NCBI GenBank assembly: GCA_029820565.1
Contig: JALGUR010000009.1
Span: 1,787 to 65,786, forward strand
DNA length: 64,000 nucleotides
Direction of reading: 5' to 3'
DNA from: Candidatus Zipacnadia bacterium
GTDB taxonomy: Bacteria; Armatimonadota; Zipacnadia; Zipacnadales; Zipacnadaceae
The notes beneath the pieces were generated by a model. That model ran no database searches and was not told where the DNA came from. It saw nothing but the letters and a program-made list of their open reading frames with translations. This document shows positions 3,836 to 50,620 of the stretch, in pieces (the first letter of the stretch is position 1; every line of letters starts with the position of its first letter). A program made the position numbers and the translations under genes.

Positions 3836-5826
3836 CATCCTATGCGATATGGCACCGAAGTGAAGAAGCCCACAATTATCCAAATAACACCGTTAAGCGT
3901 ATCCCCGATGATTAGGCCCAGAAAGAAAGGACGTAGCACCTCATAGGTCTTATGCCCGCCCCAGCGCACCACGGCGCTCTTTATCAACCAGGCCGAGAAT
4001 ATAGACAGGGATAACGCACAGATGAGCCAGTCGTCGGCAATCAGGAAACCAATAGGGTGGAGATTGAACCAGGTCAAATGGGTCCGCAGCCACACCAGGC
4101 CGACCATCAATAACGAGCCGCCGACAAAGTGAGATATAAGTATCGGGTCAATCTTCAGGGGATTCATCGTGGTGGCGCTAACCCAGGAATGAATAAGGTT
4201 CATATGTCTGGTCATAGGATAGTAGGACGCGAATCCCAGGGCTCCGCCCCGGGTGTAGTGCATCCACAGGGTAGCGACCACCGATATGGGAAAACCCAGC
4301 GCAATAGCACCAACACAAGCCTTCAGCAGCGAGCCGCGATGTAGACCAGTGGCATCGGAAATCTTGTAACCATTGAGCAAACTGGGCAGGAGGCACTCGG
4401 ACATCTCGAAGTGAAACGCGTAGTCACTCCATCTGGTAATTAGTAGGGATTGACGACTCCATATACTACTACCAGTCAGAGTGGCAATTACTTGGGTGAT
4501 GTAATAGGGGGGCAACACAAAGATAAACCCGGCTTGATTAACCATCCAGGACAATGCCACCAAGGTGGCTACGAACATAACCACAACTAATAGCCCCATG
4601 ACCAGGCTCCCGCCAAAGTGCGCCAGCCATCCGATCATTAGGGCAGTCCCAATTAGGAATAACACGACCATCGCTCGATAAGTCAGTGGCTCATCGGCAT
4701 CGTCAATTGAGCGGTCGCCGGTCAAAGCCTTGCGGAAGACATTGCCAAAGTGACCTCGCCCCAGCCAGACAAACAGGCTCACCAGGGTAACAGTAGCGCC
4801 GGCTTCTTCCAGTTGAGCGCCCACCCAGTTGGCCCCATACCGTAGACCGAACATGCCCAGAACCATCAGCCGCAACTTATGAAGCAGGAAGAAAAACCAA
4901 AGGCTGAAGGAGACCTCCGAGGGAATAAGATAGGCAAAGCCGACCATAGTCGGCCACAGACGCGCGCGCCACACGCCGGTGTAGGACAAGGGTGGCTCGG
5001 TAAACCTATAATCACTCCATCTCAAGGGAATCTCGGGGATGGCCGGATATAGAGCATGTAACCCGCCCAGAATATGGACTATACTCAGTATGATCACTGC
5101 CGCCCATACCAGCCTGTTACGCAAGAAACCATTAATTAGCTGACCGGGCGAGGGTGAGGCGGCAATTTGCACCGGGACCTGTACTACAGGAAATGTAAAT
5201 CTTTCCTGCTCCACCCAGCGGCGACGCAGCATCCCAGCCAGCCCAATCATCATCACCTGCATACCAGCGATATAGATAGCCCAAATGGCTACTGGTCGCA
5301 GCCACGGTTGAAAGGGAACAGCGCTTCCCAGCGGCAAACCTTCATAGAACCCTTCAATTGCCGCCGGGTCGCTTACTAATAAAGATTGAGTGCGGGGATC
5401 GGCTAATAACTCTCCCCAGTTATTCTCTGGCGAAGCGAAATAGGGGCCGTGCACCATGCTGGGGATATTCCAGCCTACTGGAGCGTTTCCCACGCTGGAA
5501 CTGGCGACAACTACGATCCACATTGCCGCCAATTGGGCAGGGGACAGTGTCCAGTGCGGGGCGAACTTGCGTAGAACCACATTTACTCCTAAAGTCATTA
5601 TCAGCAGTACACCAAAGGCGCCGACGGGGAAGAAAGTCTTACCAAGGGGGATGCTGAGGTTAGGGTTGCCCGCCATCAGGAAGGAATTAAAGGGAGTTGC
5701 GGCTAATACCGCAGCGCTGATCGCAAGGACGGCTACTAAGACTATCTTACCGATCCTTTCCCGTCTCTCACGGGGCAGGTTAGGGGCAGGAGTATGTTGT
5801 CTGGCTTGCATTAGGCTATGTCCCAA
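3832..5826 (-). CDS. Large polytopic integral membrane protein, function unknown
   Basis: 664-aa ORF with more than 12 hydrophobic helices throughout. It converges on the sialidase-like gene with a 4-nt overlap. The start could also be the internal MQARQ. Confidence 0.75.
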   Translation of the reverse strand: MGHSLMQARQHTPAPNLPRERRERIGKIVLVAVLAISAAVLAATPFNSFLMAGNPNLSIPLGKTFFPVGAFGVLLIMTLGVNVVLRKFAPHWTLSPAQLAAMWIVVVASSSVGNAPVGWNIPSMVHGPYFASPENNWGELLADPRTQSLLVSDPAAIEGFYEGLPLGSAVPFQPWLRPVAIWAIYIAGMQVMMIGLAGMLRRRWVEQERFTFPVVQVPVQIAASPSPGQLINGFLRNRLVWAAVIILSIVHILGGLHALYPAIPEIPLRWSDYRFTEPPLSYTGVWRARLWPTMVGFAYLIPSEVSFSLWFFFLLHKLRLMVLGMFGLRYGANWVGAQLEEAGATVTLVSLFVWLGRGHFGNVFRKALTGDRSIDDADEPLTYRAMVVLFLIGTALMIGWLAHFGGSLVMGLLVVVMFVATLVALSWMVNQAGFIFVLPPYYITQVIATLTGSSIWSRQSLLITRWSDYAFHFEMSECLLPSLLNGYKISDATGLHRGSLLKACVGAIALGFPISVVATLWMHYTRGGALGFASYYPMTRHMNLIHSWVSATTMNPLKIDPILISHFVGGSLLMVGLVWLRTHLTWFNLHPIGFLIADDWLICALSLSIFSAWLIKSAVVRWGGHKTYEVLRPFFLGLIIGDTLNGVIWIIVGFFTSVPYRIGC

Positions 5827-5979
5827 ATGCTATTTCGACTGAAGACTGCGATGTGTGCTCTTAACTCATGATACACTTATTCATCGTGGCCTCGATTCCT
5901 TCCGCATAGGTTGTGTATTGCTGTTTGGGTACAGAAGTGTTGGCTATGTCGGGTAATCACACAGGAATTCGGCCGATAG

Positions 5980-6180
5980 CGGAGAAACCGTCTCAGTGAT
6001 TGTGGAGGCTGCGGAGGCAGCGACGCAGTTGCCAAGGCAAAAGAATTGCTCGCCACGCTTCCCGACCAGGTGCTTGCCGCCTACGAAGCCGGGGACACTA
6101 CCGCTTGTGAGCGGGGGCGAGCCCAAGTGCTGGATGCTCTGCTGGCCTTACCGGAGCAGACCGCGGGTGGCACTGAGTAA
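5980..6180 (+). pseudogene. Relic of the C-terminus of a paralog of the 2..2458 gene
   Basis: Frame open from 5980 with no start codon. It ends AKELLATLPDQVLAAYEAGDTTACERGRAQVLDALLALPEQTAGGTE*. This parallels the ORF1 C-terminus EELLVTLPDQVIAAAEEGDLAACDRGRGQVLDALVALTQNQ*. Long identical DNA blocks are present (cccgaccaggtg; ccaagtgctggatgctct). Confidence 0.7.
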
Positions 6181-6619
6181 TGAGGTGGTGGGGTAGCCGG
6201 GCCAGACGTCGGTGATTGTTGAAAAACAAAGAGCCCACACCTTGATTGACCTGAACTTCCCTACTGCCAATGGCACCAACGTCAGCCAGACCGGCAAGGC
6301 CAGTTTCGAATTGGAAACGGTGGCCGCGCTGCCCGACTTTGAACCCAACTGGCCCGAGAATGCGATCAGCTTCGGCAAGGACTACATGTTGTAGGCAGTG
6401 GAGGCTTTGGTGTGGTTGGCTAGGAATCGGGTTTAAGAGACCTGGGGCTATAGCAACGGCAACAACTGGATGATGCCGCCGCTGGCGGGGGAAGCCCAAT
6501 ATTGAGCAGGAACAAGCCGCGGCACGTCCTTAAATAGTAGCCAGTACCTGAAGGGCGAACTCTGCCCAGACTGGAGGGTTCGCCCTCTTCAATGGTCGGG
6601 TTGTTTTCGCCGCGGGTAC

Positions 6620-7378: not shown

Positions 7379-8632
7379 TTACAGGTCTTCATAGATAGGA
7401 AAAGCCGCGCATAACTCGACAACTTGCTGGCGAATCTCATCAAGTACGTCAGCGGCCTCGCGGCCCTCGTGGATGGCGCGGGCCATCCACTGGCCTACCA
7501 TCTTCATCTCGTTCTCTTTCATTCCCCGGCTGGTCAGCCCCGGGGTGCCGGGGCGAATACCACTGGCTTCGGTGGAAGGCAGCGGGTCACCGGGAATTAG
7601 ATTCTTATTCACTACCATTCCGGCGGCCTCCAACAGGTCGGCGGCTTCGCGGCCTGTGACGTCTTTATTGCGCAGATCCACCAGCAGCAGATGATTGTCA
7701 CTGCCGCCAGTGACCAGAGTGAAGCCCTCCTCCAGCAGCGCCTGGCCCAGGGCCTGGGAATTGCGGATAATTTGCCGCTGGTATTCCCGGAAGCCAAACT
7801 CCTGAGCCTCTTTGAAGCAGAGGGCCTTGGCGGCGATTATCTGCATTAGCGGTCCCGCCTGGATACCAGGAAATACGGCCCGGTCAATGCGGTCGGCCCA
7901 GTCGGCCCGGCATAGAATCATCGCCCCCCGCGGACCCCGTAGGGTCTTATGGGTCGTTGAAGTTACCACTTCGCAATACGGCACAGGGTCAGGATGAGCC
8001 TCGGCCGCCACCAGCCCGCAGATATGGGCGATATCAGCCATTAAATAGGCTCCAACTTCATCGGCTATCTCCCGGAACTTCTGAAAATCTATAATACGGG
8101 GATAAGCGCTGCCGCCGGCGATAATGAGTTTAGGCCGGACTTCCTTAGCGTCCTGAAGAATCATATCGTAGTTAAGCCGGTCAGTCTCGGGGTCCAGGCC
8201 GTAGAAATGACCCTCATAAAACTGGCCACTGAAGTTTATGGGGTCGCCATGAGTCAGGTGACCGCCCTGGGCCACGCTCATGGCCAGGATCCTATCCCCC
8301 GGCTCCAGCATTGCGTAGTAAGCGGCCATATTGGCCTGGGAGCCGGTATGTAGTTGAACATTGGTGTGGTCAGCGTGGAATAGTTCGCAGGCGCGGTCAA
8401 TGGCCAGTTGCTCTAACTGGTCATAGTACTCACAGCCATTGTAATAACGCCGATATGGATAGCCCTCAGCATATTTGTTGGTGAATACCGATCCCATCGC
8501 CGCCATCACGGCGCGTGAAGCATAGTTCTCTGAGGGTATGAGCATCAGGGTATCTTTCTGGCGTTCCAGTTCCCCGGCCATAATGCGGGCTATTTGCGGG
8601 TCGGCTTGAGCAAGAGTACGGTTCATCATTGG
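7379..8632 (-). CDS. glyA: Serine hydroxymethyltransferase
   Basis: Full-length SHMT-like sequence (..TNKYAEGYPYRRYYNGCEY.., TTHKTLRGPRG PLP-lysine motif). Start chosen at ATG 8632 (MMNRTL) downstream of GGTGA; the ORF is open from GTG 8644. Confidence 0.95.
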   Translation of the reverse strand, partial: PMMNRTLAQADPQIARIMAGELERQKDTLMLIPSENYASRAVMAAMGSVFTNKYAEGYPYRRYYNGCEYYDQLEQLAIDRACELFHADHTNVQLHTGSQANMAAYYAMLEPGDRILAMSVAQGGHLTHGDPINFSGQFYEGHFYGLDPETDRLNYDMILQDAKEVRPKLIIAGGSAYPRIIDFQKFREIADEVGAYLMADIAHICGLVAAEAHPDPVPYCEVVTSTTHKTLRGPRGAMILCRADWADRIDRAVFPGIQAGPLMQIIAAKALCFKEAQEFGFREYQRQIIRNSQALGQALLEEGFTLVTGGSDNHLLLVDLRNKDVTGREAADLLEAAGMVVNKNLIPGDPLPSTEASGIRPGTPGLTSRGMKENEMKMVGQWMARAIHEGREAADVLDEIRQQVVELCAAFPIYEDL

Positions 8633-8685
8633 ACAGATCACCACTTAGCTTTCAGGGTGTACTGCACAGCAACAATACTGCTTGG

Positions 8686-9783
8686 CTAGGCGAAGGTACA
8701 CACCTCGTCTATGAGGGCCATATAGTATTTGAAATTCTCAAAGGGTACATCGGGTGGCACGGCGTGGTCCACCATGGGCGAGAAGCCGCCCTGTTTGACC
8801 AGTTGGGGCACTTTAGACATAACTTCTTGCTCTATATCCTGCTTGGTGCAGCCGTCCCGAAGCACGCGCTTGTCAATACCGCCCAGCAGTCGCAGTTCCT
8901 GACCGAACTGCTCGCGGTAGGCCACCGGATCGCAGCTAGCCGCCACCTCCAAGGGAAAGATTAAGTTGACGTCAGCCTCCAACCACAGCGGAATGAGTTC
9001 GTCCACATTCCCATCCGAGTCGAGCATGATGATCTGGATGCCGTAGTCGTTCAGCACTTTGGTCACGCGCTTCAACGGCGCCATCATAAACTCACGAAAC
9101 AGTTTCGGCGAGATGAGCGAGCCGGTCTTCATCGCCATATCTTCCCATATCAGCGCGTGATCAATGTCGGGGATTTCGCTGAGAGCACGGTCCATCAGCC
9201 GCAGCACAAAGTCAGTTACATACTCGGTCATCTCGTGGACCAAGTCGGGACAGTCGTAGTACCACAGGGCCAGGTGCTCCATCCCTATCCAGTTGCGAAT
9301 CCACCCATAGAAGGACCCGGCCATAATGCCCAGCGAGTAGTCGCGATTCCGGTAGCAGCGCTTCAGGTCCTCCCAATATTCGGAGTACCGGTTAGGCGCG
9401 TCGGGATTCAACCGCTTCTTAAGGCTCTCCCAACTGTCCCGGTCGCGCACCGGGTAAACCAGCCACTGGGGCATCCCGAACTCGCGATCAGTCCAGTGTC
9501 TGGATACGGCGCCTAATTCGTCCTCCACAGTCTGCCATTCCGCCGTCTGCTCAACTACTTTGGTCTCCGGCGGTGGCAACAGCCCAGTTTGCAGGGGAAT
9601 GTACTCTATCCGGTCAAAGCCAAAGTAGGTGGTGAAATGCTGGTCCCAGGGCATCCCTTCCCGCAGCCAGCGCTCGCGTGTGTCGGCAAACGTCCACTGC
9701 GACATCAGAAATACCCGGTCGGGCTGGCCATACTGGAAGGTAGCGTGAAACCGTTCCCGCGCATTCATTGCTTCTGAGGCCAT
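8686..9783 (-). CDS. Uroporphyrinogen decarboxylase (URO-D) family protein
   Basis: N-terminal MNARERF..GQPDRV pattern and overall length fit URO-D/MtaA-like TIM barrels. Start chosen at ATG 9783 after AAGGAG; the ORF is open from TTG 9813. Confidence 0.65.
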   Translation of the reverse strand: MASEAMNARERFHATFQYGQPDRVFLMSQWTFADTRERWLREGMPWDQHFTTYFGFDRIEYIPLQTGLLPPPETKVVEQTAEWQTVEDELGAVSRHWTDREFGMPQWLVYPVRDRDSWESLKKRLNPDAPNRYSEYWEDLKRCYRNRDYSLGIMAGSFYGWIRNWIGMEHLALWYYDCPDLVHEMTEYVTDFVLRLMDRALSEIPDIDHALIWEDMAMKTGSLISPKLFREFMMAPLKRVTKVLNDYGIQIIMLDSDGNVDELIPLWLEADVNLIFPLEVAASCDPVAYREQFGQELRLLGGIDKRVLRDGCTKQDIEQEVMSKVPQLVKQGGFSPMVDHAVPPDVPFENFKYYMALIDEVCTFA

Positions 9784-9858
9784 TTGGACAAAATCTCCTT
9801 GTGGCAGTGACAAGCCAATGTTACTAACCTTTCGCCCCCGGCCGTCTTTTACCTTCTT

Positions 9859-10932
9859 TCAGTCCAGCAGCAGATCGCTTTCTCGGAAAATAATGGCCCG
9901 AATCCAGGCCTCGGGCGCCTCGCGCTTAATGTAATTGACGCAGTAGATAGTACCGTCAGGCAGTTGTGCCCAGCCGGAGTAGCCGCTGTCCGGATAAGGG
10001 CTGTTATCATAGTCCAGCATCATAATGCGGTTGGTCTGGCGCTGGATATCGCGCTCGGGACCCGGGCCGCGCAGCAGCGCGCTGTCCACTTCCTCCAAAT
10101 AGGCGCACAGCCGCTGGGCGCCAAATGTCAGGCCCAGGTGTTCCCGGTAGGTGACCAGCACCCGGCCGCTGGCCAACAGGCCGGCCGTAGGCCGGTGGCA
10201 GCCGACCATAAACGTAGGATAGGGCCCTTCCCAGGTCAAGCCGCCGTCGCCCGAGAAGCACTTGAAGCCGGGATAATTCAGCATAGAATCCTCTCGCATA
10301 TAGCAAATGAGCGTCCCATCGGGTAGCAATAGCACGCTGCCCTCGTCATGATTATACTTCCCGTCATCGGCGATAGTTATCGGGCCATCCCAGGTGACAC
10401 TGCCATCGGTGCTGCAATACACGAACACGGCGAGTTTGCCCGTCGCCGCATTGCGCCAATGGGTGGCAACCAACAGCGTGCCGTCGGCCAGTTCACAGGG
10501 CTTGTCTGGCATAATGCCCGGGATCCCGGTCGGCTGCCGCTGACTCCAGGTCTCTCCCTCGTCTTCACTCCACCACAGGTAGTTAACCGGCCCATACTCG
10601 CCCGTGGCTGACTCCGAACGATGCCAGATCAGATCACACACTGCTACCAAGCGGCCATCATTCAGCACGCGCATACGAGGGCAATTGTACGACCAGTACT
10701 CTTCGGCTTTCACCTCGGCGGCGTGCGGGCCTACAGCCACCACGATGCGGTCGCTCCAGGTCTGGCCCTCGTCGTCGCTGAGCCGGGCGACAACCCGCGA
10801 GTATTCCCGGGCCACGTGCCAATCGGCCTCCCGGTACATAACCACCAGCCGCCCGGACGGCATCCGCACCAGGTCCGGGAAGGCTTCGTAGACGCTGTCG
10901 TCTCGGGAAACTACGCGGTATTGTAGGGCCAT
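9859..10932 (-). CDS. BNR/Asp-box repeat protein (sialidase-like), no signal peptide
   Basis: Asp-boxes SDDEGQTW, SEDEGETW, STDGSVTW, SGDGGLTW. ATG 10932 lies 1 nt after the TAG of the upstream gene. The longer 11052 start would overlap that gene. Confidence 0.8.
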   Translation of the reverse strand: MALQYRVVSRDDSVYEAFPDLVRMPSGRLVVMYREADWHVAREYSRVVARLSDDEGQTWSDRIVVAVGPHAAEVKAEEYWSYNCPRMRVLNDGRLVAVCDLIWHRSESATGEYGPVNYLWWSEDEGETWSQRQPTGIPGIMPDKPCELADGTLLVATHWRNAATGKLAVFVYCSTDGSVTWDGPITIADDGKYNHDEGSVLLLPDGTLICYMREDSMLNYPGFKCFSGDGGLTWEGPYPTFMVGCHRPTAGLLASGRVLVTYREHLGLTFGAQRLCAYLEEVDSALLRGPGPERDIQRQTNRIMMLDYDNSPYPDSGYSGWAQLPDGTIYCVNYIKREAPEAWIRAIIFRESDLLLD

Positions 10933-10933
10933 C

Positions 10934-11716
10934 CTACTGGTCCTCCTTTGGCTTTTCGGCCCAGTGGCGGATTCCTGCCTGCAGTTGCCCGCACAGACTG
11001 GGATTGTGCATAGCCGCCGTCCCCACCGCCACCGCATCCGCGCCAGCCTCAATTACTGAGCGTGCTTCCTCTGGCGTCTTGATTCCGCCACCGATAATGA
11101 GGAATAGGTCAGACTTCCTGAGCCGACTGATGGCCTGCAGACCCTCTTCACTAACCGCGTTACCAACATTGGCATGGACGATTTGGACTCCCACCTCGGC
11201 CATCACATCAACGGCTTGCTTAGTATCCGGCGTGTCATGCACTCCTATCTTTGCGATGAATGGCTGAGTAGTTGCGGCCAAGATTGCTGCGAGGTGCTCG
11301 CGCAGTCGCGGCCAGTTCTCGCGGCGCAGCAGGGCCGAACTTAGGCCTCGGCTGACAAACATCTCCATCGTTGAGTGCAGGCAAACTGAGATATAATCAG
11401 CTCCGGCATCCTCCGCCGCGACCAGGAAATCAACGGTATCATCCAGGTTGATGCTGGCCACGCTGACGCCTACCGCCGCGCCGCTGTTGCGGGCAGCCGC
11501 TACGTGTTCCTGCAGGTAACCAGCGTAGTTATGCCGGCCGGATTTGAATACGAAGTCGGGACTGTACGGCACGTCGTCGCCGGCGTCAACTATGTAGGTG
11601 CCCAGCACGACCAGGGCCGCGCCCGCACCGTGCTCCGCACAGTACGGCCCGTCACCATGCCCACCTAACTCAGCCAGTACCACTCCGTTCTTTAATCGGT
11701 CAAAAGAATGGACCAT
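10934..11716 (-). CDS. TIM-barrel protein, DHOD/Dus-like FMN-oxidoreductase fold (tentative)
   Basis: 260-aa ORF with alternating beta/alpha pattern and a C-terminal IIGGGIKT..GADAVAVGTA phosphate-binding signature. The exact family is not recognised. Confidence 0.5.
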   Translation of the reverse strand: MVHSFDRLKNGVVLAELGGHGDGPYCAEHGAGAALVVLGTYIVDAGDDVPYSPDFVFKSGRHNYAGYLQEHVAAARNSGAAVGVSVASINLDDTVDFLVAAEDAGADYISVCLHSTMEMFVSRGLSSALLRRENWPRLREHLAAILAATTQPFIAKIGVHDTPDTKQAVDVMAEVGVQIVHANVGNAVSEEGLQAISRLRKSDLFLIIGGGIKTPEEARSVIEAGADAVAVGTAAMHNPSLCGQLQAGIRHWAEKPKEDQ

Positions 11717-13555: not shown

Positions 13556-14581
13556 CTAAAATTCATACTCGCGGCGGCGATGGAGTAGGTAGAGGAAGAA
13601 CGGTGCGCCCAGCAGCGAGGTGATGATGCCGATGGGTATCTCGCCGGCCAGGTTAGCCACCATGTCAGATAGGCCGAGTACAATCCCGCCGGCGAGGAAG
13701 CACAAAGGTAGGAGAATGCGGTGGTCGGGGCCGACCATCAGGCGTATCAGATGAGGCACTACCAGGCCGACGAAGCCAATAATGCCGGTGACTGCTACCG
13801 CCGCCGCCGCTAACAGCGAGGCTAAGACCAGTAGTATCAGTTTGACTCGCTCAACTGGTATGCCCAAATGATGGGCTTGCTCGTCACCCAGTAGCAAGGC
13901 ATTTAGGTCGCGGCTATAAGCGTAGACAATCACGCTGCCGACTACAACGTAAGGCAGGACCATCCACACCTCCGGCCAACCCCGGTTGGCCAGGCTGCCC
14001 ATCATCCAGAAGATGACCAGGTCCAGGTCGCCCTGCTGACCCCGAACCAGGATAAACGAGGAGATCGCCGAGCACAGCGAGCCGAGGGCAATGCCCGTAA
14101 GTAGCAGCAGCGTGATAGGAGTACGTCCACCTCGTCGGGACAGAAAATACACTGCCACTGACACCAGCAGAGCGCCGAGGAAAGCGGCCACCGGAACCGG
14201 ACTCACGCCTAAAATCCACCAATTCAGCCCTAACATTATTGCAGCGGTGGCCCCGAGGGTCGCGCCTGCTGACACGCCCAGGATAGACGGGGCGGCCATC
14301 GGATTCTGGAAAAAGCCCTGCATAACGCCGCCGGCCACTCCTAAGGCTGCGCCTACCAGTAGCGCCAAGATCAACCGCGGCAGGCGGATGTTCAGCACTA
14401 TGGCTTGCTCGGCTTCAGAGGCCTGGGGGGCCAATCCGTGCAGGCCGGGAAGGGGACTGAGCAGTATTCGCATAGCCCGGCCAGCCGGAAGTGGCGACGG
14501 CCCAGTAGCCAGCGAGACCGCGACTGTAGCCACCAATACTATGGTGAGGCCGGCGGCGACAACCGTGTACCGCCCTTTCAT
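13556..14581 (-). CDS. FecCD/BtuC-family ABC transporter permease
   Basis: 341-aa polytopic protein with typical FecCD motifs (RLPR.., ..GIIGFVGLVVPH..). 4-nt overlap with the upstream ATPase gene. Confidence 0.9.
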   Translation of the reverse strand: MKGRYTVVAAGLTIVLVATVAVSLATGPSPLPAGRAMRILLSPLPGLHGLAPQASEAEQAIVLNIRLPRLILALLVGAALGVAGGVMQGFFQNPMAAPSILGVSAGATLGATAAIMLGLNWWILGVSPVPVAAFLGALLVSVAVYFLSRRGGRTPITLLLLTGIALGSLCSAISSFILVRGQQGDLDLVIFWMMGSLANRGWPEVWMVLPYVVVGSVIVYAYSRDLNALLLGDEQAHHLGIPVERVKLILLVLASLLAAAAVAVTGIIGFVGLVVPHLIRLMVGPDHRILLPLCFLAGGIVLGLSDMVANLAGEIPIGIITSLLGAPFFLYLLHRRREYEF

Positions 14582-15390
14582 GGCTGCGGCCTCCCTTGCT
14601 CAAGCCCGGCCGGTAGCAGGCTGACCCGTGGCTTCCCACCCGGCCCGATGTCTACCTGCACGGGCGCTCCGTAGACCTGGCGCACCATCTGCTCACTGAT
14701 TATCTGTGACCCCGGCCCGTCGTCATACACCACTCCGTCCTTGAGTACGACAATCCGGGGACAGTACTGGGCGGCCAGGTTCAGGTCGTGAGAGACGCAT
14801 ATAATGGTCATATCCTGGTCGGTATTAAAACGCTTCAGCAGTTCAAAGATTTCGCGCTGGTGGTTGAGGTCCAGAAAGGCCGTAGGCTCGTCCAGCAGCA
14901 ATACGTCAGTCTGCTGAGCCACAGCCCGGGCGATGGTCGCCCGTTGCATTTCGCCGCCGGAGAGGTCAGTGATGGGGCGATCGGCCAGGTGGGTTACGTC
15001 GGTCAGGGTCATAGCCTGCTGGGCGATCTGCCCATCGCCGGGTCGCTGAAACTGCAGTCGGCCCAGATAGGGGGTGCGGCCCATCATCACATAATCACGC
15101 ACGGTAAAGGGGAATATGCTGCCGCTGAGTTGGGGAACCACCGCTATCTTTTGGGCTATTTGGCGCCGGGTGTAATGAGCCAGAGGCTGGCCATTCAACA
15201 GGACTCGTCCACTGCGCAGCGGCAGTATGCCAGTTAATGCGCGTAGTAGTGTGCTTTTCCCCGAGCCGTTGGGTCCGATCAGCCCCACAAATTCTCCCTG
15301 CGCCACGTCCAGCGTCACATCCCGTAGCACATCCTCATCATCATACCCACAGACTATCCCTTCGGCTGCCAATGTATGCGCGTCATCCAT
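14578..15390 (-). CDS. ABC transporter ATP-binding protein (BtuD/FepC-like)
   Basis: Walker A GPNGSGKST, signature LSGGEMQR, Walker B LLLDEP. ATG 15390 is preceded by GAGGGG and overlaps the stop of the binding-protein gene. Confidence 0.9.
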   Translation of the reverse strand: MDDAHTLAAEGIVCGYDDEDVLRDVTLDVAQGEFVGLIGPNGSGKSTLLRALTGILPLRSGRVLLNGQPLAHYTRRQIAQKIAVVPQLSGSIFPFTVRDYVMMGRTPYLGRLQFQRPGDGQIAQQAMTLTDVTHLADRPITDLSGGEMQRATIARAVAQQTDVLLLDEPTAFLDLNHQREIFELLKRFNTDQDMTIICVSHDLNLAAQYCPRIVVLKDGVVYDDGPGSQIISEQMVRQVYGAPVQVDIGPGGKPRVSLLPAGLEQGRPQP

Positions 15391-16420
15391 CGTCTTGCCC
15401 CTCATAGCATTGAGTGGCGCGAGCCAGCGCTACGCTGATCGTTTCAAGCCCATCAATAAGTCGCGGGCCGGGGATGGTGACCAAATCATCATCTATTATG
15501 TAGACCTGTCCCTGCTTGACCGCCGTCACCTGCTGCCAGCCGGGATCAGTCTTTAGCCGGTGCAGTATCTGCTCCGCCTCGGCGGCTTGGGCTTTTCCAT
15601 GAGCGGCTGTGGAGATGATTGCCTGGGCATTGGCAGCTACCACCGCCTCCCGCGAAATCTGTGGCCAGGGCTTTTTCTGGTCAACGTTAGTGATTTGCCG
15701 CACGGCATTCTCGCCGCCTGCCGCAGTTATCATATCGTTGACAAAGCTGGTGGCCCCAGCCACGAACAACGGCTCCCAGGACAGCACAAACAGCACCCGC
15801 AGCCGGATACCAGACCGACCAGACGCCTGCCGCAGCACCGTTTCGTAACGCTCCCGCAAATCCTGCGCGGCTTGCTCGGCCTGTTCTTGATGGCCGGTGA
15901 CTTCTCCCAGACGGCGGACCAGTTCTATTACATCGGGCAGCGTCTGCGGGTCGTAGCCCAGCACGCTGATGTCCAGTTCCGCCAGCCGCCTGATGAAGGC
16001 CATATCATTGCCCCGGCTAACGAGGACTAAGTCGGGTTGTAGGCCCACAATCTTCTCCAGACTGGGGTTGATGATTCCCCCGACCTTGGCTTTAGCCGCG
16101 GCTTCGGGAGGGTAGTTGCAGAACTCGGTAACTCCGACCAACTGGTCAATAGCCCCCACCAGCGCGATTATTTCCGCTAAGTTCGGCTGCAAGGTAATGA
16201 CACGTTGGGGTGGCCGGGCAAGGGTCACGGTATTGCCCAGGTCATCAGTGAAAGTCCGCGGCCAAGTCTGAATGGCCGGCGAGACGGTGGAATTGGGGAG
16301 GTGCGCCTCGGGCAGTGGGCCAGAGGGCTGCCTGGAGGTGCGGCAGCCTCCCAGCAGTAAGACAGTGATGAAACCTACCAGTCCTAACTGTTTGCCAATT
16401 GACCATTTCACTGTGAGCAT
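15383..16420 (-). CDS. Lipoprotein periplasmic binding protein, BtuF/cobalamin-siderophore class
   Basis: Lipobox LLLGGC. RVITLQPNLAEIIALVGAIDQLVGVTEFCNYP is typical of class III (BtuF-like) binding proteins. Sits in the riboswitch-controlled operon. Confidence 0.85.
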   Translation of the reverse strand: MLTVKWSIGKQLGLVGFITVLLLGGCRTSRQPSGPLPEAHLPNSTVSPAIQTWPRTFTDDLGNTVTLARPPQRVITLQPNLAEIIALVGAIDQLVGVTEFCNYPPEAAAKAKVGGIINPSLEKIVGLQPDLVLVSRGNDMAFIRRLAELDISVLGYDPQTLPDVIELVRRLGEVTGHQEQAEQAAQDLRERYETVLRQASGRSGIRLRVLFVLSWEPLFVAGATSFVNDMITAAGGENAVRQITNVDQKKPWPQISREAVVAANAQAIISTAAHGKAQAAEAEQILHRLKTDPGWQQVTAVKQGQVYIIDDDLVTIPGPRLIDGLETISVALARATQCYEGQDDG

Positions 16421-16449: not shown

Positions 16450-17175
16450 CTACTCCAGATCATAGGCGCTGTCATCAGCCGACAGGTCAGCCAACGAACC
16501 ATCATAGGTACTGACATTGAACTTCTGTGTAGCCGCTTTAGCATGCCCATCGCAATAGGCCACATTCGCCGTCTGATTATGTCGGAAATGGACATTGGGC
16601 CCAATCCAGGTATACATCGGGTCTCCGGGGGCGCGCAGGTAGTTGTTCTGGTTAATGCCCGTCCCGCTGAACGAGTCCCAAATGGCACTGTCGCACAACA
16701 TCACCGTCTCACTGGGGCGGGCGATACTTCCCAGTGCCGCCGGGGTGAGACCATCGTCAGGTGAGCCGCCCACATAAGAAGCATTGTAAGCGTAGCCACT
16801 GTACGGTCGGCCCCAGGACTGCAACTCGCCAACGGTGGGGCACAGAGTGATCTGCTCATTCAGCGTATACGGCCCAATCAGGCCCAGCCGGTGCGTCCCA
16901 TCCGACCAGTTAACATAGAAATCCCAGGCCGATTCCCAGCTCCAGTCAGGCGCCATATCGTAGGCAAAGGGCATCCTATCGTCGTAGTCCTGGGCGTACA
17001 TCATAAAAGCCAGGGCTAGTTGTTTGACATTGGACAGACAACTGGTCTGGCGGGCCTTTTCCCGTGCGTGAGCGAAGACCGGGAAAAGGATGGCGGCCAG
17101 GATAGCAATTATCGCTATCACTACTAACAGTTCTATCAATGTGAAGCCAGTTTTCTGGTTGTGAAGTCTCAGCAT
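16450..17175 (-). CDS. Prepilin-type N-terminal cleavage/methylation protein with H-X9-DG motif (DUF1559-like pseudopilin)
   Basis: Class III signal ..KTG|[24 protein letters not shown] with Glu at +5. C-terminal [15 protein letters not shown] matches H-X9-DG exactly. First gene downstream of the cobalamin riboswitch. Confidence 0.85.
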
Positions 17176-17248
17176 TGTTATCTCCCCATAATTAGTGTTT
17201 GGTTTAGGTACTGATACGTCTGTTATTCAATTGTCTGGAGCCGAGAAG

Positions 17249-17277
17249 CAAAAACCGCCGCTTCTCAGGGCGGCGGT
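17249..17277 (-). terminator. Intrinsic terminator (riboswitch expression platform)
   Basis: Minus strand CCGCCGC-cctgagaa-GCGGCGG followed by TTTTTG, located between the riboswitch aptamer and the first ORF. Confidence 0.75.
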
Positions 17278-17324
17278 GGTCGTTTAGCCAAAGAACTCAC
17301 CCCCCTCCCGCGAGAGGATGTAGT

Positions 17325-17490
17325 CAGTCGCTTACGTGGCAGTCTCCTGGCTTACGGATCGTCCTACTCCCCGTGCCTTCCCAAGGTAACGGCTCCTCAG
17401 TGGCTTGCTACGGGTTTCGTCCCCGATTACAGTTGCGGGGCAGCGACGGCTTCGCACCGTCTTCCTGCTCACACAAGCAGTTGTTATTCA
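17325..17490 (-). promoter_or_regulatory. Cobalamin (B12) riboswitch
   Basis: The minus strand contains GGTGCGAAGCC, GCTGCCCCGCAACTGTAA, the B12 box GCCACTG..GGGAAGGC, and AAGCCAGGAGACTGCC, in canonical order and spacing. Confidence 0.85.
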
Positions 17491-17499
17491 GTTTTGGTC

Positions 17500-17528
17500 A
17501 GTATATCAGGTCGCGCCTTCCTTGTCAA
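17500..17528 (-). promoter_or_regulatory. Sigma70-type promoter of the riboswitch operon
   Basis: Minus strand TTGACA-17 nt-TATACT, about 10 nt upstream of the aptamer. Confidence 0.6.
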
Positions 17529-17664: not shown

Positions 17665-19003
17665 TTACTCAATATCGGGCAGGCTTGCCAGAGCCTCCTG
17701 GATCTTCGCTTCGGGATACTCGTAATCCACCAAGTCCCCAGTCAGATAGGCATCGTAAGCGGCCAAGTCAAAGAAGCCGTGCCCACTGTAGGCGATGACT
17801 ATACACTTCTCTTCGCCGGTTTCTTTGCATTTCAGGGCCTCGTCAATCGCTCCCTTGACACAGTGCGCTGTCTCGGGGGCCGGTAGTGAGCCTTCGGTAC
17901 GGGTGAAAGTTATCGCGGCCTCAAAGACCTCATTTTGGTGGAAGGCCCGGGCTTCAATAACTCCCTGATTAACGAGCAGACACAGCAGCGGCGCATCGCC
18001 GTGATAACGTAGGCCGCCCGCATGAATTGGCGGCGGCACAAAACTATGCCCCAGGGTGTACATCTTCAGCAGGGGCGTAAGTTCGGCCGTGTCGCCGAAG
18101 TCATAGCGGAAAGGCGCTCGGGTCAGGGTCGGGCAGGCGGTCGGTTCGGTGGCGATAATGTCAATGTCCTGGCCGTCCAATTTGTCCTTAACAAAGGGGA
18201 AACACTGGCCGGCAAAGTTAGACCCGCCGCCCACACAACCTCTCATCCACCATGGCCAGTTGTTTTTTCAGCTCCAAGCCCACAATAGTCTGGTGCAGCA
18301 TCACGTGATTGAGCACGCTGCCCAGGGCATACTTGGCTTCCGGGTCACTAACGGCATCCTGGAGAGCCTCGGAAATGGCAATCCCCAGGCTGCCAGGCGA
18401 GTCAGGGTCCTGGGCCAGGATGGCACGGCCTGCCTCGGTCCTGTCGGTGGGCGAGGGGAAGCACTCCGCGCCCCAGGCCTCCATCAGCATCCGCCGGTAG
18501 GGCTTCTGGTCGTAACTAATCCTCACCATATATACAGTGATATCCAAGTCAAACAGGGCCCCAGCCAACGATAGGGCGCTGCCCCACTGGCCGGCTCCGG
18601 TCTCGGTGCAGATCCGCTTGACCCCTTCTTGCTTGTTGTAGTAGGCCTGGGCCACCGCCGTATTGGGTTTATGGCTACCCGCCGGGCTGAAGCTTTCATT
18701 CTTGTAGTAGATGCGGGCCGGCGTGTCCAGGTATTCCTCCAGCCGGTACGCTCGGAACAGTGGGCTGGGCCGCCACAGCTTGTAGATCCGCAGCACTTCG
18801 TCGGGAATATCAATCCACCGCTCCATGCTCACTTCCTGCTTGATGAGCTCCATCGGGAAGATGGGCGCCAGGTCCTCCGGGCCGATAGGCTCACCGGTAC
18901 CCGGATTCAGGGGTGGCGCCAGCGGCGCGGGCAAGTCCGGATTGATATTGTACCACTGTTGAGGCATTTCACTTTCGGGCAGGATAATCCTTGTGTCATT
19001 CAT
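17665..19003 (-). pseudogene. trpB: TrpB2-type tryptophan synthase beta-like PLP enzyme, interrupted by a frameshift
   Basis: Two ORFs (18218..19003 and 17665..18246) together cover a complete TrpB2. The first has the PLP-lysine region ..[12 protein letters not shown]... The first ends ..[16 protein letters not shown]. The second resumes at [11 protein letters not shown] in another frame. The junction lies at about 18231-18250. Confidence 0.85.
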
Positions 19004-19419: not shown

Positions 19420-19725
19420 TCACCCCCGTCGCCAGAGGGTGCCGGTGGGGGTGTCTTCTAAGATGATGCCCTGGGCGGCCAGTTGGGTGCGGATTTCGTC
19501 GGCGCGGGTGAAGTTGCCCTCTTGCCGAGCTTCCTCACGTTGGGCGATCAGAGTCTTGATTCTCTCTGTATCAATAGCGTCCAACAGTCGTTTGATAGCC
19601 TCTTCATTCCGAAGGGGGCCATGCACGTGGATATGGCCGTCTTGCGTCTGTATCACAACCAAGTGTTCAACTATCTCGCCTTCAACGGGAATGTCTCTCT
19701 TCTCGGAGCAAAACGGGCATTGCAT
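19420..19725 (-). CDS. Small protein: CxxC/HxHxH N-terminal module fused to the CysRS C-terminal domain
   Basis: Own RBS (GGAAGGAG, 9 nt before the ATG). The C-terminal half IKTLIAQREEARQEGNFTRADEIRTQLAAQGIILEDTPTGTLWRRG matches the conserved extreme C-terminus of cysteinyl-tRNA synthetases. The N-terminal MQCPFC..HIHVHGP is unrelated. Confidence 0.7.
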   Translation of the reverse strand: MQCPFCSEKRDIPVEGEIVEHLVVIQTQDGHIHVHGPLRNEEAIKRLLDAIDTERIKTLIAQREEARQEGNFTRADEIRTQLAAQGIILEDTPTGTLWRRG

Positions 19726-19766
19726 ATTGCGTCACTCCTTCCTGTGATGCAAACAAGCCTTAGCCG

Positions 19767-21153
19767 TTACCGGATTGGGCTACTGCTACTGGATGATGAG
19801 CCGCTACTGCTTGAGCTGCTACTCGAACTGCTGCTTAACGAAGACAAACTCGCAACGACCTGGCGTTTCTCCAGTTGCTTCGTCATTATGCCCAGGACGC
19901 TGTCGGCCTGCTGCAGGAACTCAAAGATAGCCTCGCGGTCGCCGGCGTGAAGCTGGCCTGCGTCAATCATCATATTGACCTGCTTTATCAGCTCAAATAC
20001 CACGCCTATGGCGCCCGGGACGTTCAGGTCATCATCCATCGCAGTTTCAAAGTCCTGGTGCGCGCGCGCCACAATCTCCCCTGCTTGCTCTGAGCGGCCC
20101 TCGCGCAAGGGCAGGCGGGGCAGGCGGGGCAACCGATCAATGAAGGTATTGAGCCGCGCGACGGTCCGCTCGCTCTGCTGGAGCCCCTCCATAGTGAAGT
20201 TGAGTTGCTGGCGGTAGTGGGCGGTGAGCAGTTGGTGGCGGATGGCCTGGGGCGAGTAGCCCTGCTCCAGCAGGTCGCGTAGGGTGAAGAAATTGCCCCT
20301 CCAGCAGGTCGCGTAGGGTGAAGAAATTGCCCAGTGACTTGGACATCTTCTGGCCTTCCACTATGAGATGCTCGCCATGCACCCAGAAGCGGCAGAACTG
20401 CTGGCCGGTAGCGCCTTCGCTCTGGGCGATTTCGTTCTCGTGATGCGGAAAGAGCAGGTCAACAGCGCCGGTGTGAATGTCCAGGGTCGGCCCCAGATAG
20501 GCCATAGACATCGCCGAGCACTCAATATGCCAGCCCGGCCGGCCCGACCCCCACGGGCTATCCCAGGAGGGCTCACCGGGCTTAGCCGCCTTCCAGAGGA
20601 CAAAGTCGCCGGCTTCCTCCCGCTCATACTGGTCGCCCTCCAGGCGGCTGAACTCGGTGGAACTTGATAATTCTTCGGGCTGGACGCCGGACAGTTTCCC
20701 ATAATCGGCAAATGAAGAGATATCATAGTAGACGCTGCCCTCGGCGACATAGGCATGGCCATTATCCAACAGTTTCTGAATAATCTCGTGCATCTGGGAG
20801 ATATGCTGGGTGGCTTGGGGGTATTTCCAGGCGCGCCGAATGTTGAGGGCATCAATGTCGTCAAAGAAATACTGAGTGTACTTTTCAGTGTACTCCGCGA
20901 GGCTGAGGCCCTGGGCGGCGGCGCCGGCGATGGTCTTGTCATCCACATCAGTGATGTTCATCACCTGCTTGACCTCAAAGCCCTTGAAGGACAGATAGCG
21001 GCACAGGATATCATTGAACGTGAAGGTACGCAGGTTGCCGATATGGGCAAAGTCGTAGACCGTCGGCCCGCAGGAGTACACCCTGGCCGTTTCGCCATCA
21101 TCCGGCTCAAAGACTTGTTTCCTTCTGGTCAGGGAATTGTACAATCGTAGCAT
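19767..21153 (-). pseudogene. cysS: Cysteinyl-tRNA synthetase, frameshifted by a 34-bp tandem duplication, ending in a poly-Ser tail
   Basis: N-terminal ORF carries the HIGN-type motif (FAHIGNLRT) and KMSKS. After ..[11 protein letters not shown] the frame is lost. Removing one 34-bp copy restores ..[35 protein letters not shown].., which joins ORF 19767..20192 (anticodon-binding domain). It ends ..SLSSLSSSSSSSSSSSGSSSSSSSPIR*. Confidence 0.9.
20265..20332. repeat. Perfect 34-bp direct tandem duplication inside cysS
   Basis: ctccagcaggtcgcgtagggtgaagaaattgccc occurs twice head-to-tail (20265-20298 and 20299-20332). Confidence 0.95.
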
Positions 21154-41160: not shown

Positions 41161-41236
41161 AGAGTAGTCATAGTCCGATAAAGCATGTGGATAACAAACC
41201 GCGTAAAAGTATGATGACGCTGAGGTGTTGATAACT

Positions 41237-43021
41237 ATGCGACGGCCCCAGGGACATAAGCGTATTGGTGAGATGCTCATCGACAAAGGTCTGCTTACCG
41301 AGGAGCAACTCCAACAGGCTCTGGAAACGCAGCAGCAAACTACCCAACTGATTGGTGAAGTATTGATGGACTTAGGGTTTGTGGAGCCTCGTCAACTCCA
41401 CGAAACTCTGGCTGAGCAACTCAAGGTGCCCTTCTACAATTTGGACAGCCAGGACGTTGATACCGGGGTGGCGCTGCTGTTAGGGCGAGATCTGGCCGAG
41501 CGGTATCGGGCCATCCCGGTCGGCCGCGGGGAGGGAACAATCCGGGTGGCAATGGCTGAGCCGGGCGATGTCATTGCTATGGATGACTTGAAAAGGCATC
41601 TTCAGGTGCCCATTGAGCCGCTGCTGGCTGTTCCGGCCGCGTTGGAGAGAACAATTGAGAAGGTTTACGAGAGCGCGCAGGAGAGTTCTGCGTCGGCCGC
41701 GGCTACAGGAGCCGCCTTAGGTGGGGTGGATATGGAGCAACTCACCCAGTCAGTTCGAGACTCGGGTGTGTTAGGGACCACTGAACCCGAGGACAGGCGG
41801 GAAGAGCGTCTGGAGACGGACCGCCTTACCGACGTGACCGATGAAGCCCCTATTATCAAGATTGCCAAAGTACTCATTCAGCGGGGCATCCAGGAGCGGG
41901 CCAGCGATATCCACGTTGAGCCTTACCAGAATCGCGTGCGGGTCCGCTATCGGATTGATGGCGTGCTCCACGATGTGATGCAGATACCCAAGTATGTCCA
42001 CGCTCCGTTGGTCTCGCGCATCAAGATTATGTCGGATATGAATATCGCTGAGCGCCGGGTGCCGCAGGACGGCCGCATCCATGTGCGCCATGCCGATAAG
42101 GACTACGACTTGCGTTGCTCAGTCATTCCTACCACGCTGGGAGAGAAGGCTGTGATGCGGATCTTGGACAAGACCTCCATACAAATAGGTCTGCAGGAGC
42201 TGGGGTTTGAAGAAGAAACTTTGGCCCAATTGGAGAAACTCATCATCCAGCCCAACGGAATGATTCTTTCCACTGGGCCTACTGGGTCGGGTAAGACTAC
42301 TACGCAGTACAATATTCTCAACCGTATTCTATCGGTAGAGACCAATATCATCACTATTGAAGATCCTGTTGAATACCAACTGGACGGTCTGAGCCAAGTC
42401 CACGTCAACCGTAAGGCGGGTCTGACTTTTGCGATCGCCCTGAAATATTTCCTGCGTCAGGACCCGGACATAATCCTGGTGGGAGAGATCCGCGACTTGG
42501 AGACCTCGGAAATTGCCATTCAGGCCGCGCTCACCGGCCACCTGGTGCTCAGCACTCTACACACCAACGATGCTCCTTCTACAATTACCCGGATGGTGGA
42601 TATGGGGGTGGAACCGTTCCTGATCTCTTCGTCGGTCATCGCCTCGCTATCGCAGCGGCTGACGCGCCAAGTCTGTCCGAACTGCAAAGAGCCTTATACT
42701 CCGCGCAAAGACCAACTGTTGGGCTTTGGCTTTGACCCCGATGCGCCCGAGAATAAGGATGTGGTATTCTATCACGGTGCAGGTTGTGATGCGTGTCGTC
42801 AGACCGGCTATCGCGGGCGCATGGGTATCTTTGAGTTGATGGTGATGAACCAGGACATTGCGGAGTTGATTGTTAAGCGGGCCTCGGCCGGGCAGATCCG
42901 TGAAGCTGCCATGGCGTCGGGAATGATTACGCTGCGCGAAGACGGATTCAAGAAAGTCCTGCGCGGGGTCACCACTATAGAGGAGTTAACCCGCGTGGTA
43001 TTTACTGCGGGAACCTGGTAA
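41237..43021 (+). CDS. pilB: Type IV pilus assembly ATPase PilB (GspE family) with MshEN-type N-terminal domain
   Basis: Walker A GPTGSGKTTT, Asp/His boxes, and the tetracysteine motif CPNC..CDAC. ATG 41237 lies 9 nt after GAGGTG. Confidence 0.93.
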   Translation: MRRPQGHKRIGEMLIDKGLLTEEQLQQALETQQQTTQLIGEVLMDLGFVEPRQLHETLAEQLKVPFYNLDSQDVDTGVALLLGRDLAERYRAIPVGRGEGTIRVAMAEPGDVIAMDDLKRHLQVPIEPLLAVPAALERTIEKVYESAQESSASAAATGAALGGVDMEQLTQSVRDSGVLGTTEPEDRREERLETDRLTDVTDEAPIIKIAKVLIQRGIQERASDIHVEPYQNRVRVRYRIDGVLHDVMQIPKYVHAPLVSRIKIMSDMNIAERRVPQDGRIHVRHADKDYDLRCSVIPTTLGEKAVMRILDKTSIQIGLQELGFEEETLAQLEKLIIQPNGMILSTGPTGSGKTTTQYNILNRILSVETNIITIEDPVEYQLDGLSQVHVNRKAGLTFAIALKYFLRQDPDIILVGEIRDLETSEIAIQAALTGHLVLSTLHTNDAPSTITRMVDMGVEPFLISSSVIASLSQRLTRQVCPNCKEPYTPRKDQLLGFGFDPDAPENKDVVFYHGAGCDACRQTGYRGRMGIFELMVMNQDIAELIVKRASAGQIREAAMASGMITLREDGFKKVLRGVTTIEELTRVVFTAGTW

Positions 43022-43063
43022 CAGGGACTGATTGCTGCGTACTTGTCCAGAAAAGGGAGAGCA

Positions 43064-47682: not shown

Positions 47683-47795
47683 ATCAGGCTTATGGACACG
47701 CTTAGCGAGCTGCTGCATAATAAAATCGGCGGCTCTGTTTTATTGTCCGCCAGAAGGGTAAAATAAAGGTAGTAACGAGTTCGGGAACAGCAGAA

Positions 47796-49427: not shown

Positions 49428-49629
49428 AGGATAGTGGACAGTCGTCAGTGGACAGTGGGCAGGAACGGCGAATTAACGACAGGCAGTGGTCGTTTGGAGG
49501 GGCCGCGCCGAGCATAGCAAGGCCGGCCCACCTGTCCATAGAACGCGGGCCGGGTTCACTGCGTTCAACCGGTCCCTCCAAGAAACGACGGATAACGACA
49601 GAGAAGTGGCAGCGGAACACATTTTACCA

Positions 49630-49785
49630 TTGTAGGAGGGGCTTCATAGCCCCGAGAAGCACAACCTGACGAGAGAGGCTTCTAATCACGAGACCGGTCG
49701 CGGCAGAGATGCCGCTCCTACAAATCAAACAGAACGTTGTAGGAGGGGCTTCCCAGCCCCGATAAGTAGTCCTACAAATCAAAGA
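49630..49785. repeat. Cluster of three REP-like elements (BIME-like)
   Basis: tGTAGGAGGGGCttcataGCCCCgag (+), tGTAGGAGCGGCAtctcTGCCGCgac (-), tGTAGGAGGGGCttcccaGCCCCgat (+). The motif ctcctacaaatcaaa occurs twice. Confidence 0.8.
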
Positions 49786-50610: not shown

Positions 50611-50620
50611 AGTAAAGATT

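Follow-up and report, generated by a model that had tools for sequence, protein, structure and literature searches.

Operons for vitamin B12 import that are controlled by a cobalamin riboswitch are well known. Here, we describe such an operon in which the first gene encodes a pilin-class protein, located in a stretch of 64,000 nucleotides from a Candidatus Zipacnadia bacterium (Armatimonadota; assembly GCA_029820565.1, contig JALGUR010000009.1, positions 1,787 to 65,786), the whole of which is referred to as the window. On its minus strand a promoter, a cobalamin riboswitch and a terminator-like hairpin precede the gene for a prepilin of the DUF1559/H-X9-DG family, and genes for a BtuF-like binding lipoprotein, a BtuD-like ATPase and a BtuC-like permease follow (Table 1). 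The DUF1559/H-X9-DG family is among the largest protein families without an assigned function, and single genomes may hold hundreds of copies; to our knowledge, none of its members has been connected with a ligand or a process. Using covariance-model and profile searches, comparison of homologous loci and structure prediction, we find that one clade of this family is linked to cobalamin riboswitches, and we think it probable that the pilin serves as an envelope component in corrinoid acquisition, at a step ahead of BtuFCD, and that B12 represses its operon.

Results

A cobalamin riboswitch precedes a pilin gene and a BtuFCD-like gene set

An Rfam scan of the whole window returned the cobalamin riboswitch (RF00174) and no other family, with a match (E = 1.3e-22) that lies far above the gathering score of 31.5 bits. 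A preliminary description of this DNA had proposed a cobalamin riboswitch on the minus strand, to be checked by an RF00174 search, on the basis of the conserved blocks GGTGCGAAGCC, GCTGCCCCGCAACTGTAA, GCCACTG..GGGAAGGC and AAGCCAGGAGACTGCC; all four are readable in the window and the search bears the proposal out. A covariance model built here from 13 orthologous aptamers, the window copy and 12 others (model R1), widens the aptamer and includes the closing P1 helix, GCTTGT/GTAAGC. The B12 box and the core columns are invariant over the alignment of these 13 aptamers. The Rfam match is local because the 5' peripheral hairpin of the window copy is shorter than in its relatives.

The promoter and the GC-rich hairpin with its run of five T residues, both of which had been pointed out before, flank the aptamer on either side (Table 1). 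The T-run lies about 70 nt ahead of the Shine-Dalgarno sequence and the pilin ATG, and hairpin and T-run together are presumed from the sequence to form the expression platform of an OFF switch. When the complete leader was folded as a single sequence by minimum free energy, the aptamer helices and the terminator were visible, but the fold, with a z-score of -0.12, was uninformative, so that we rely instead on the conservation of the terminator across relatives: a hairpin and T-run are found between aptamer and pilin start in 27 of the 37 directly linked leaders, with stem sequences that differ between lineages.

Pilin gene and BtuF-like gene are separated by 29 nt, and the next two junctions overlap by 23 and 4 nt, too little space for a promoter or a terminator between the genes; this geometry suggests that the pilin and transporter genes are co-regulated. 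The next gene, purH, lies 165 nt beyond the permease gene and probably forms a transcription unit of its own. From riboswitch to permease the window aligns to a sister metagenome contig free of insertions and deletions at ~98% identity. With a cluster A binding protein, a FecCD permease and an ATP-binding cassette (ABC) ATPase in one operon the BtuFCD-like gene set is complete, and the matches to PF01497, PF00005 and PF01032 confirm the lipoprotein binding protein, ATPase and FecCD permease that had been assigned to the downstream genes. For the permease, the BtuC model NF007081 is the best NCBIfam model. The remark in the preliminary description that the operon holds no TonB-dependent, BtuB-like gene also stands, as we found no TonB-dependent receptor domain in the operon or among the large open reading frames of the window that were scanned.

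The pilin has a class III signal and a predicted beta-rich head

The first open reading frame is, as described earlier, a prepilin of 241 residues with an FTLIE cleavage motif and an H-X9-DG motif. A leader of 10 residues is followed, behind its terminal glycine, by FTLIELLVV, and the sequence follows the class III signal pattern in having a short basic leader, G at -1, a hydrophobic residue at +1, E at +5 and a hydrophobic alpha-1 segment. It scores 36.7 bits with the N_methyl model PF07963 (threshold 21.2), 32.6 bits with TIGR02532 (threshold 16.3) and 21.9 bits with the H-X9-DG model TIGR04294 (threshold 19), and the match to DUF1559 (PF07596), at 40.7 bits against a gathering score of 23.3, covers only profile positions 2-72 of 268. 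The N-terminus also matches GspG-type pseudopilin models. The H-X9-DG motif is formed by H199-x9-D209-G210, and the residues conserved throughout the family (C46, C112, R198, H199, D209, G210 and H211) are all present.

The AlphaFold2 model of the pilin has a predicted local distance difference test score (pLDDT) of 93.7 and a predicted template modelling score (pTM) of 0.86. It consists of an alpha-1 helix of ~50 residues (13-63) and a beta-rich head of eleven strands with a short helix at 188-191. In a sequence search of the PDB, solved pilins match the window pilin at the helix only, and a Foldseek search of the PDB with the model gave no match at E <= 0.001, a result in which the long helix may dominate the search. 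From this empty result, the DUF1559 head would seem to be without a solved relative.

The riboswitch-pilin linkage recurs in related genomes

Pilin homologues were sought in the contigs of GTDB r232, with one genome per species, which yielded 79 distinct loci (30-79% identity); where individual loci have to be told apart they carry L numbers. The nearest relatives of the window pilin are annotated as Armatimonadota, mostly as metagenome-assembled genomes (MAGs) of Candidatus Zipacnadia. A clear same-strand cobalamin riboswitch lies upstream in 44 of the 79 loci, 29 of them confirmed by Rfam and 15 resting on R1 scores of 32-185 bits, and by Rfam such a riboswitch is found at all 12 of the 12 best homologue loci. 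Rfam found no match of any family in 31 paralogue control loci (250 kb), and the four other prepilin-type genes of the window have no riboswitch. Since R1 missed the riboswitch of L040, which Rfam detects at 69 bits, negatives by R1 alone were distrusted and all 31 controls were re-scanned with Rfam. At least four phyla and four different operon architectures show the linkage. The survey for which the preliminary description had called, of whether DUF1559-type genes recur behind cobalamin riboswitches, thus gave a positive answer. In one Tepidisphaeraceae MAG (L057), a fluoride riboswitch (RF01734, 49.8 bits, 9126-9195 on the minus strand) was found within a few kb of the B12 locus, to which it is unrelated.

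Riboswitch-linked pilins form one clade with its own C-terminal tail

Apart from the pilin of L068, all riboswitch-linked pilins fall into one clade of 48 sequences. This clade spans Armatimonadota (Zipacnadia, Armatimonadia and Fimbriimonadaceae), candidate division WS1, Omnitrophota, Victivallales and Planctomycetota, the last represented by Phycisphaerales, Sedimentisphaerales and Tepidisphaeraceae. Four members are without a riboswitch (L037, L041, L048 and L064), and in L037, L041 and L048 the contig stops too near the gene for the upstream region to be checked. Three short contigs with DUF1559 pilins carry the labels of phyla that normally lack the family, namely L041 (Streptosporangiaceae), L044 (Desulfuromonadaceae) and L052 (Bacteroidetes); L041 is almost identical to the Phycisphaerales locus L038, and these labels are probably MAG binning errors.

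Members of the clade share residues that are missing from the paralogues, D85, G98, P145, R181 and the tail at 231-238, and the consensus of the tail is LADLSxDDSAYDL. Tail motif and riboswitch occur together in 42 cases, the tail alone in 1, the riboswitch alone in 2 and neither in 32 (Fisher p = 4e-18), counts that were made with a loose regular expression on sequences related by descent. The tail is conserved over very different habitats. Within the DUF1559 family, which comprises 389,546 clusters at 50% identity (E <= 0.001), the tail is present in 29 of the best 150 representative clusters, and the tailed clade is not represented by a model in NCBIfam release 20.

The pilin keeps its riboswitch while its partner genes change

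Most Armatimonadota share the window arrangement of riboswitch, pilin, BtuF, BtuD and BtuC (architecture A), and BtuFCD partners the pilin in ~25 loci, with the order F-C-D in L026, L030 and L031, of which L030 belongs to Omnitrophota. Additional genes may be inserted. In L016 (Candidatus Zipacnadum vermilionense, 8162-9848), CobU (cobinamide kinase/guanylyltransferase) and CobT (dimethylbenzimidazole phosphoribosyltransferase) lie between btuF and btuD within the pilin operon, an arrangement that points to coupling of cobinamide salvage with uptake. A PF01902 PP-loop ATPase is added in six loci of architecture A, and also in L020 and L035. The gene, which encodes a Dph6/MJ0570-like PP-loop ATP pyrophosphatase, was located in L003 (7819-8505), L005, L014, L021, L020 (6711-7367) and L035 (10465-11178), either in the btuF-btuD interval or directly after the pilin in riboswitch-controlled operons, and is absent from the window operon; its product may be an unrecognised corrinoid-related enzyme.

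Four loci (L018, L020, L024 and L029) have two tandem riboswitches followed by the pilin and no transporter (architecture B), and groES-groEL comes next after the pilin in L018, L020 and L029. As the pilin stands alone behind the tandem riboswitches, it is itself the regulated target. Both aptamers are complete and ~80-90 nt apart in all four (L018 2856-3332, L020 5388-5859, L024 2981-3479 and L029 1526-1980), an arrangement that suggests a steeper response to B12.

Architecture C, found in Planctomycetota, consists of the riboswitch, one or more PEP-CTERM proteins and the pilin, sometimes with DUF1638 behind it (L042, L043 and L047). A role in the reactivation of split MetH has been described for DUF1638 (bioRxiv 10.1101/192971). 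The order is riboswitch, pilin and PEP-CTERM (or dockerin) protein in L033, L035 and L036. Architecture D is represented by L068, a Schlesneria MAG (4591-6611), in which a 125-bit riboswitch precedes a divergent DUF1559 pilin of 340 residues and a DUF6580 membrane protein of 217 residues. The position of this pilin outside the clade suggests a second, independent recruitment to B12 control, and the DUF6580 protein may be a small inner-membrane corrinoid transporter.

Recurrence, restriction to one clade, survival of the linkage when partners are exchanged and the existence of loci with the pilin only support the earlier inference that the pseudopilin is co-regulated with B12 uptake genes.

In L034 (3570-4979) a BNR_2 sialidase-like beta-propeller protein is encoded directly behind the riboswitch-linked pilin. 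A homologue of it with 35% identity is encoded in the window (9859-11052, minus strand), three genes beyond the permease. The protein may be another accessory of B12 loci, or its presence in both places may be coincidental.

A PEP-CTERM partner protein is predicted to resemble transcobalamin

The PEP-CTERM family of architecture C is always found under a cobalamin riboswitch beside a tailed pilin; no homologue of it occurs in the window. Searches of these proteins against Pfam and NCBIfam returned the sorting signals and one weak LIC_13355 match, with no core domain and no DUF4465, and sequence searches of the PDB gave no match, neither with one sequence as query nor with a profile. Some database copies of the family carry a weak PF28005 'SCO2322' tag.

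The AlphaFold2 model of the PEP-CTERM protein has a mean pLDDT of 87. According to Foldseek, one domain of ~105-112 residues in this model resembles the cobalamin-binding beta domain that is found in transcobalamin, intrinsic factor and haptocorrin. The match to transcobalamin 5np4 has a target-normalised template modelling (TM) score of 0.75, a root-mean-square deviation (rmsd) of 2.5 Å and a probability of 1.0, and further matches include 2bb6 and 2v3n (transcobalamin), 2pmv (intrinsic factor), 4kki (haptocorrin) and the bacterial protein 3u7z. The top Foldseek match, 8blw_B, was set aside because of its poor superposition (rmsd 14.8 Å). As the sequence searches were empty, the link to transcobalamin is structural only.

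The matching region appears from the model to be the C-terminal domain, which also occurs on its own as PEP-CTERM proteins of ~190 residues in the same operons. A search seeded with the PEP-CTERM protein led to a new locus, L082, which repeats the order of riboswitch, predicted binder and tailed pilin. On the strength of the predicted fold, these proteins probably represent a new class of B12 binders on the bacterial surface. A relationship between the pilin head and this transcobalamin-beta-like domain was considered as well and rejected (hhalign probability 0.8%).

Type IV pilus genes and neighbouring genes in the window

Domain searches show a complete type IV pilus gene cluster on the plus strand, so that genes for the prepilin peptidase and the assembly machine (PilD, PilB, PilT, PilC, PilM and PilQ) all lie within the window (Table 1). 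PilD would process the B12-linked pilin in trans, and the cluster is a candidate for the assembly, retraction and outer-membrane machine of this pilin. An unannotated protein of 1096 residues is also encoded in the cluster.

Upstream of the riboswitch promoter, the gene for a TrpB-like pyridoxal phosphate enzyme is split into two minus-strand open reading frames (18218-19003 and 17665-18246) because of a 17-bp deletion at ~18240 relative to the sister contig L001, in which it is intact (451 residues). The neighbouring cysS (19420-21153) is broken into pieces, and the region is 87% identical to L001, with gaps. The breaks in both genes are either assembly errors or real pseudogenes.

Table 1. 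Features of the riboswitch-pilin operon and of the type IV pilus cluster in the window, and riboswitch-linked PEP-CTERM genes at other loci.
Feature	Positions	Strand	Evidence and remarks
Sigma-70-type promoter	17500-17528	-	TTGACA-17 nt-TATACT; TG ahead of -10; 11/12 consensus positions; consensus match only
Cobalamin riboswitch aptamer (RF00174)	17321-17488, core 17340-17467	-	Rfam 95.8 bits (core); R1 167.5 bits
Intrinsic-terminator-like hairpin	17249-17277	-	ACCGCCGC/GCGGCGGT + TTTTT; stem 17277-17254, 8 pairs, 7 G-C
Shine-Dalgarno sequence GGGGAG	17182-17187	-	Read from sequence; 6 nt ahead of pilin ATG
B12-riboswitch-linked DUF1559/H-X9-DG prepilin, 241 aa	16450-17175	-	Pfam/NCBIfam matches, AlphaFold2 model, clade tree
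BtuF-like substrate-binding lipoprotein (Peripla_BP_2)	15383-16420	-	PF01497 126.5 bits; lipobox LLGGC
ABC transporter ATPase, BtuD/HmuV-like	14578-15405	-	PF00005; corrinoid ATPase model NF007082 247 bits
FecCD-family permease, BtuC-like	13556-14581	-	PF01032 315 bits; NF007081 341.7 bits
Type IV pilus gene cluster	41225-62999	+	Domain searches
PilB	41225-43021	+	
PilT	43043-44227	+	
PilC	44340-45578	+	
Prepilin peptidase PilD (Peptidase_A24)	45802-46647	+	PF06750, PF01478
Four prepilin-type genes	46822-52687	+	No riboswitch; two weakly DUF1559-like
PilM	56503-57612	+	
PilQ/HofQ-type secretin	61242-62999	+	
PEP-CTERM (or dockerin) surface proteins, other loci	L079 2904-4208; L038 1975-3486; L042 4390-5974; L036 6988-9637; L082 8001-9215		Under cobalamin riboswitch

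Discussion

The riboswitch with its promoter and terminator, the compact operon, the linkage across phyla and the B12-related partner genes together favour corrinoid acquisition as the process in which the tailed pilin takes part. A riboswitch names the metabolite to which its genes respond, and it is for this reason an unusually trustworthy functional label.

How would a pilin contribute to the uptake of B12? When cobalamin is plentiful it would occupy the aptamer, the terminator would form and transcription would end before the pilin gene. When it is scarce, read-through would place all four genes, from the pilin to the permease, on one transcript. The prepilin would then be cleaved after G10 by the PilD encoded in the window. 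The tailed clade would be dedicated to corrinoid acquisition, with the pilin at work in the envelope ahead of the ABC importer, where it might capture a corrinoid itself or take it from a surface binder and deliver it to BtuF, and so fill the step of BtuB and TonB in Proteobacteria. Two forms are conceivable: the pilin may be built into a type IV filament that is retracted through the PilQ secretin, or it may stay anchored in the membrane as a receptor, like those of the archaeal bindosome. OFF-switch behaviour, processing by PilD, incorporation into a filament and direct binding of corrinoids by the pilin are steps that we infer.

These options do not carry equal weight with the general role. 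The model of a filament that retracts through the secretin is possible, and we hold it with considerable doubt. Equally tentative is the broader proposal that the tailed clade provides the subunit which confers substrate specificity on an uptake system independent of TonB and powered by a type IV pilus or pseudopilus and, by extension, that the DUF1559 paralogues are a repertoire of substrate-capture pilins. In such a system the pilin, alone or with the transcobalamin-beta-like surface protein, might bind the corrinoid outside the cell, retract through the secretin and hand its cargo to BtuF, a sequence of events that we put forward as speculation.

Several of our results pull in the other direction and weigh against a role of the pilin in corrinoid acquisition. 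The pilin model showed no structural similarity to known B12-binding folds in the Foldseek search of the PDB, and among the clade-specific residues no His or Cys fit for cobalt coordination was found. The ABC components of the window score below the NCBI equivalog cut-offs for BtuF (NF002894, 121 against 234 bits), BtuD (NF007082, 247 against 537 bits) and BtuC (NF007081, 341.7 against 461 bits), so that their B12 specificity rests on the riboswitch. The single-sequence fold of the window leader contains no convincing antiterminator pairing. As regards the recurrence, L027 and L032 have only weak riboswitch matches under the Rfam threshold, and no riboswitch was detected at L064, a clade member that lies right after an operon of substrate-binding protein, permease and ATPase. 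The clade tree is a neighbour-joining tree on mature pilins without bootstrap values, the loci are related by descent, so that their counts are not independent events, and the evidence is computational throughout and comes mostly from MAGs.

Could the pilin be under B12 control for another reason? It might be a dedicated secretion or display pseudopilin, part of a type II secretion-like piston that exports or presents B12 binders under B12 starvation and never touches the corrinoid. The constant pairing of the pilin with a PEP-CTERM protein under the riboswitch in Planctomycetota would fit such a piston, as would the GspG-type matches of the N-terminus and a head that does not resemble known B12 binders. 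However, the operons of the window and of most Armatimonadota encode no such secreted partner, the pilin being accompanied there by BtuFCD or by nothing, and PEP-CTERM proteins (TIGR02595) are normally sorted by exosortase and not by type II secretion; we therefore consider this explanation unlikely. Less likely still is an adhesin or behavioural pilin that is induced by B12 starvation and acts outside the transport path, for instance in attachment to corrinoid producers or particles. Type IV pilins commonly mediate adhesion, and the four loci of architecture B, where tandem riboswitches control the pilin and no transporter is near, could be read in this way. Against an adhesin speak the tight and repeated operon linkage to BtuFCD, CobU/CobT and the predicted B12 binder in several phyla, and a clade tail that is kept across very different habitats.

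The possibility that chance placed an ordinary DUF1559 paralogue with no B12 role between riboswitch and btuF in one lineage deserves mention in view of the sheer number of DUF1559 clusters and of the other prepilin-like genes in the window. It is already contradicted by the recurrence data, as the linkage spans several phyla and architectures, is confined to a single clade marked by a signature of its own in the sequence and is absent from every control locus, and we regard it as highly improbable. A role of the tailed pilin in corrinoid acquisition remains the reading that we prefer.

Among open-access papers and preprints we found no report that links DUF1559, H-X9-DG proteins or pilins to cobalamin riboswitches, and the papers that mention DUF1559 are, to judge from titles and abstracts, genome, transcriptome or gene-essentiality surveys. 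New, with no earlier report found, is a pilin-class protein as a conserved, often the first and sometimes the only gene under B12 riboswitch control. One branch of the DUF1559 family gains its first concrete clue to a function in this way, with a diagnostic tail and corrinoids as the named ligand class. It comes with named partners, BtuFCD, CobU/CobT and the predicted transcobalamin-like surface binder, and with a plausible machine in PilD, PilB, PilT and PilQ. B12 exchange shapes communities, and the linkage points to a possible BtuB-independent route for B12 across the outer membrane in environmentally abundant phyla. If the repertoire proposal were true, the part that TonB-dependent receptors have in Proteobacteria and Bacteroidota would fall to the DUF1559 paralogues, of which Planctomycetota, Verrucomicrobiota, Armatimonadota and their allies have hundreds in each genome.

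The operon is best seen next to the B12 uptake systems that are already known. Like btuB of E. coli and the btuB-btuG-btuFCD loci of Bacteroides, it is a riboswitch-repressed operon in which the first product is an envelope component that comes before BtuFCD, and the related loci resemble those of Bacteroides in placing extra extracytoplasmic proteins under riboswitch control. In contrast to the btuB loci, the window operon encodes no TonB-dependent beta-barrel, and the hosts are Armatimonadota and Planctomycetota-type bacteria. Riboswitch-controlled B12 loci of Bacteroides commonly carry the extracytoplasmic capture proteins BtuG, BtuH and BtuJ (PMC6143338, PMC8941943, PMC10404256, PMC13398666). 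An accessory, non-transporter role that raises capture, as these proteins have, is what we propose for the pilin and the PEP-CTERM protein; BtuG, BtuH and BtuJ are, however, lipoproteins with beta-propeller or DUF4465 jelly-roll folds, none of which the pilin model matches.

Within the DUF1559/H-X9-DG family (PF07596, TIGR04294), of which the window pilin is a member above both thresholds, the riboswitch-linked proteins stand apart as a small clade by their C-terminal tail and their B12 control. Pili that take hold of a substrate are known from elsewhere: competence pseudopili and type IV pili (ComGC, PilQ/HofQ) bind DNA and retract through a secretin. In Planctomycetes, pili-like fibres that bind dextran have been described (PMC5394234). 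With genes for PilB, PilT and a PilQ/HofQ-like secretin in the window, capture of a substrate by a filament is likewise conceivable for the present pilin, but the proposed cargo is a vitamin of ~1.3 kDa, and a place of this pilin in a filament is hypothetical. The bindosome of Sulfolobus comes closest as a precedent for an importer operon that opens with a gene for a pilin-like protein: proteins with a pilin-type signal work there with an ABC importer in solute uptake, namely ABC sugar-binding proteins with class III signal peptides that are assembled by the Bas system (PMC3047682). The bindosome is archaeal and its canonical solute-binding folds themselves carry the pilin signal, whereas in the operon described here the BtuF-like lipoprotein is separate and the pilin signal belongs to a protein with a DUF1559 head.

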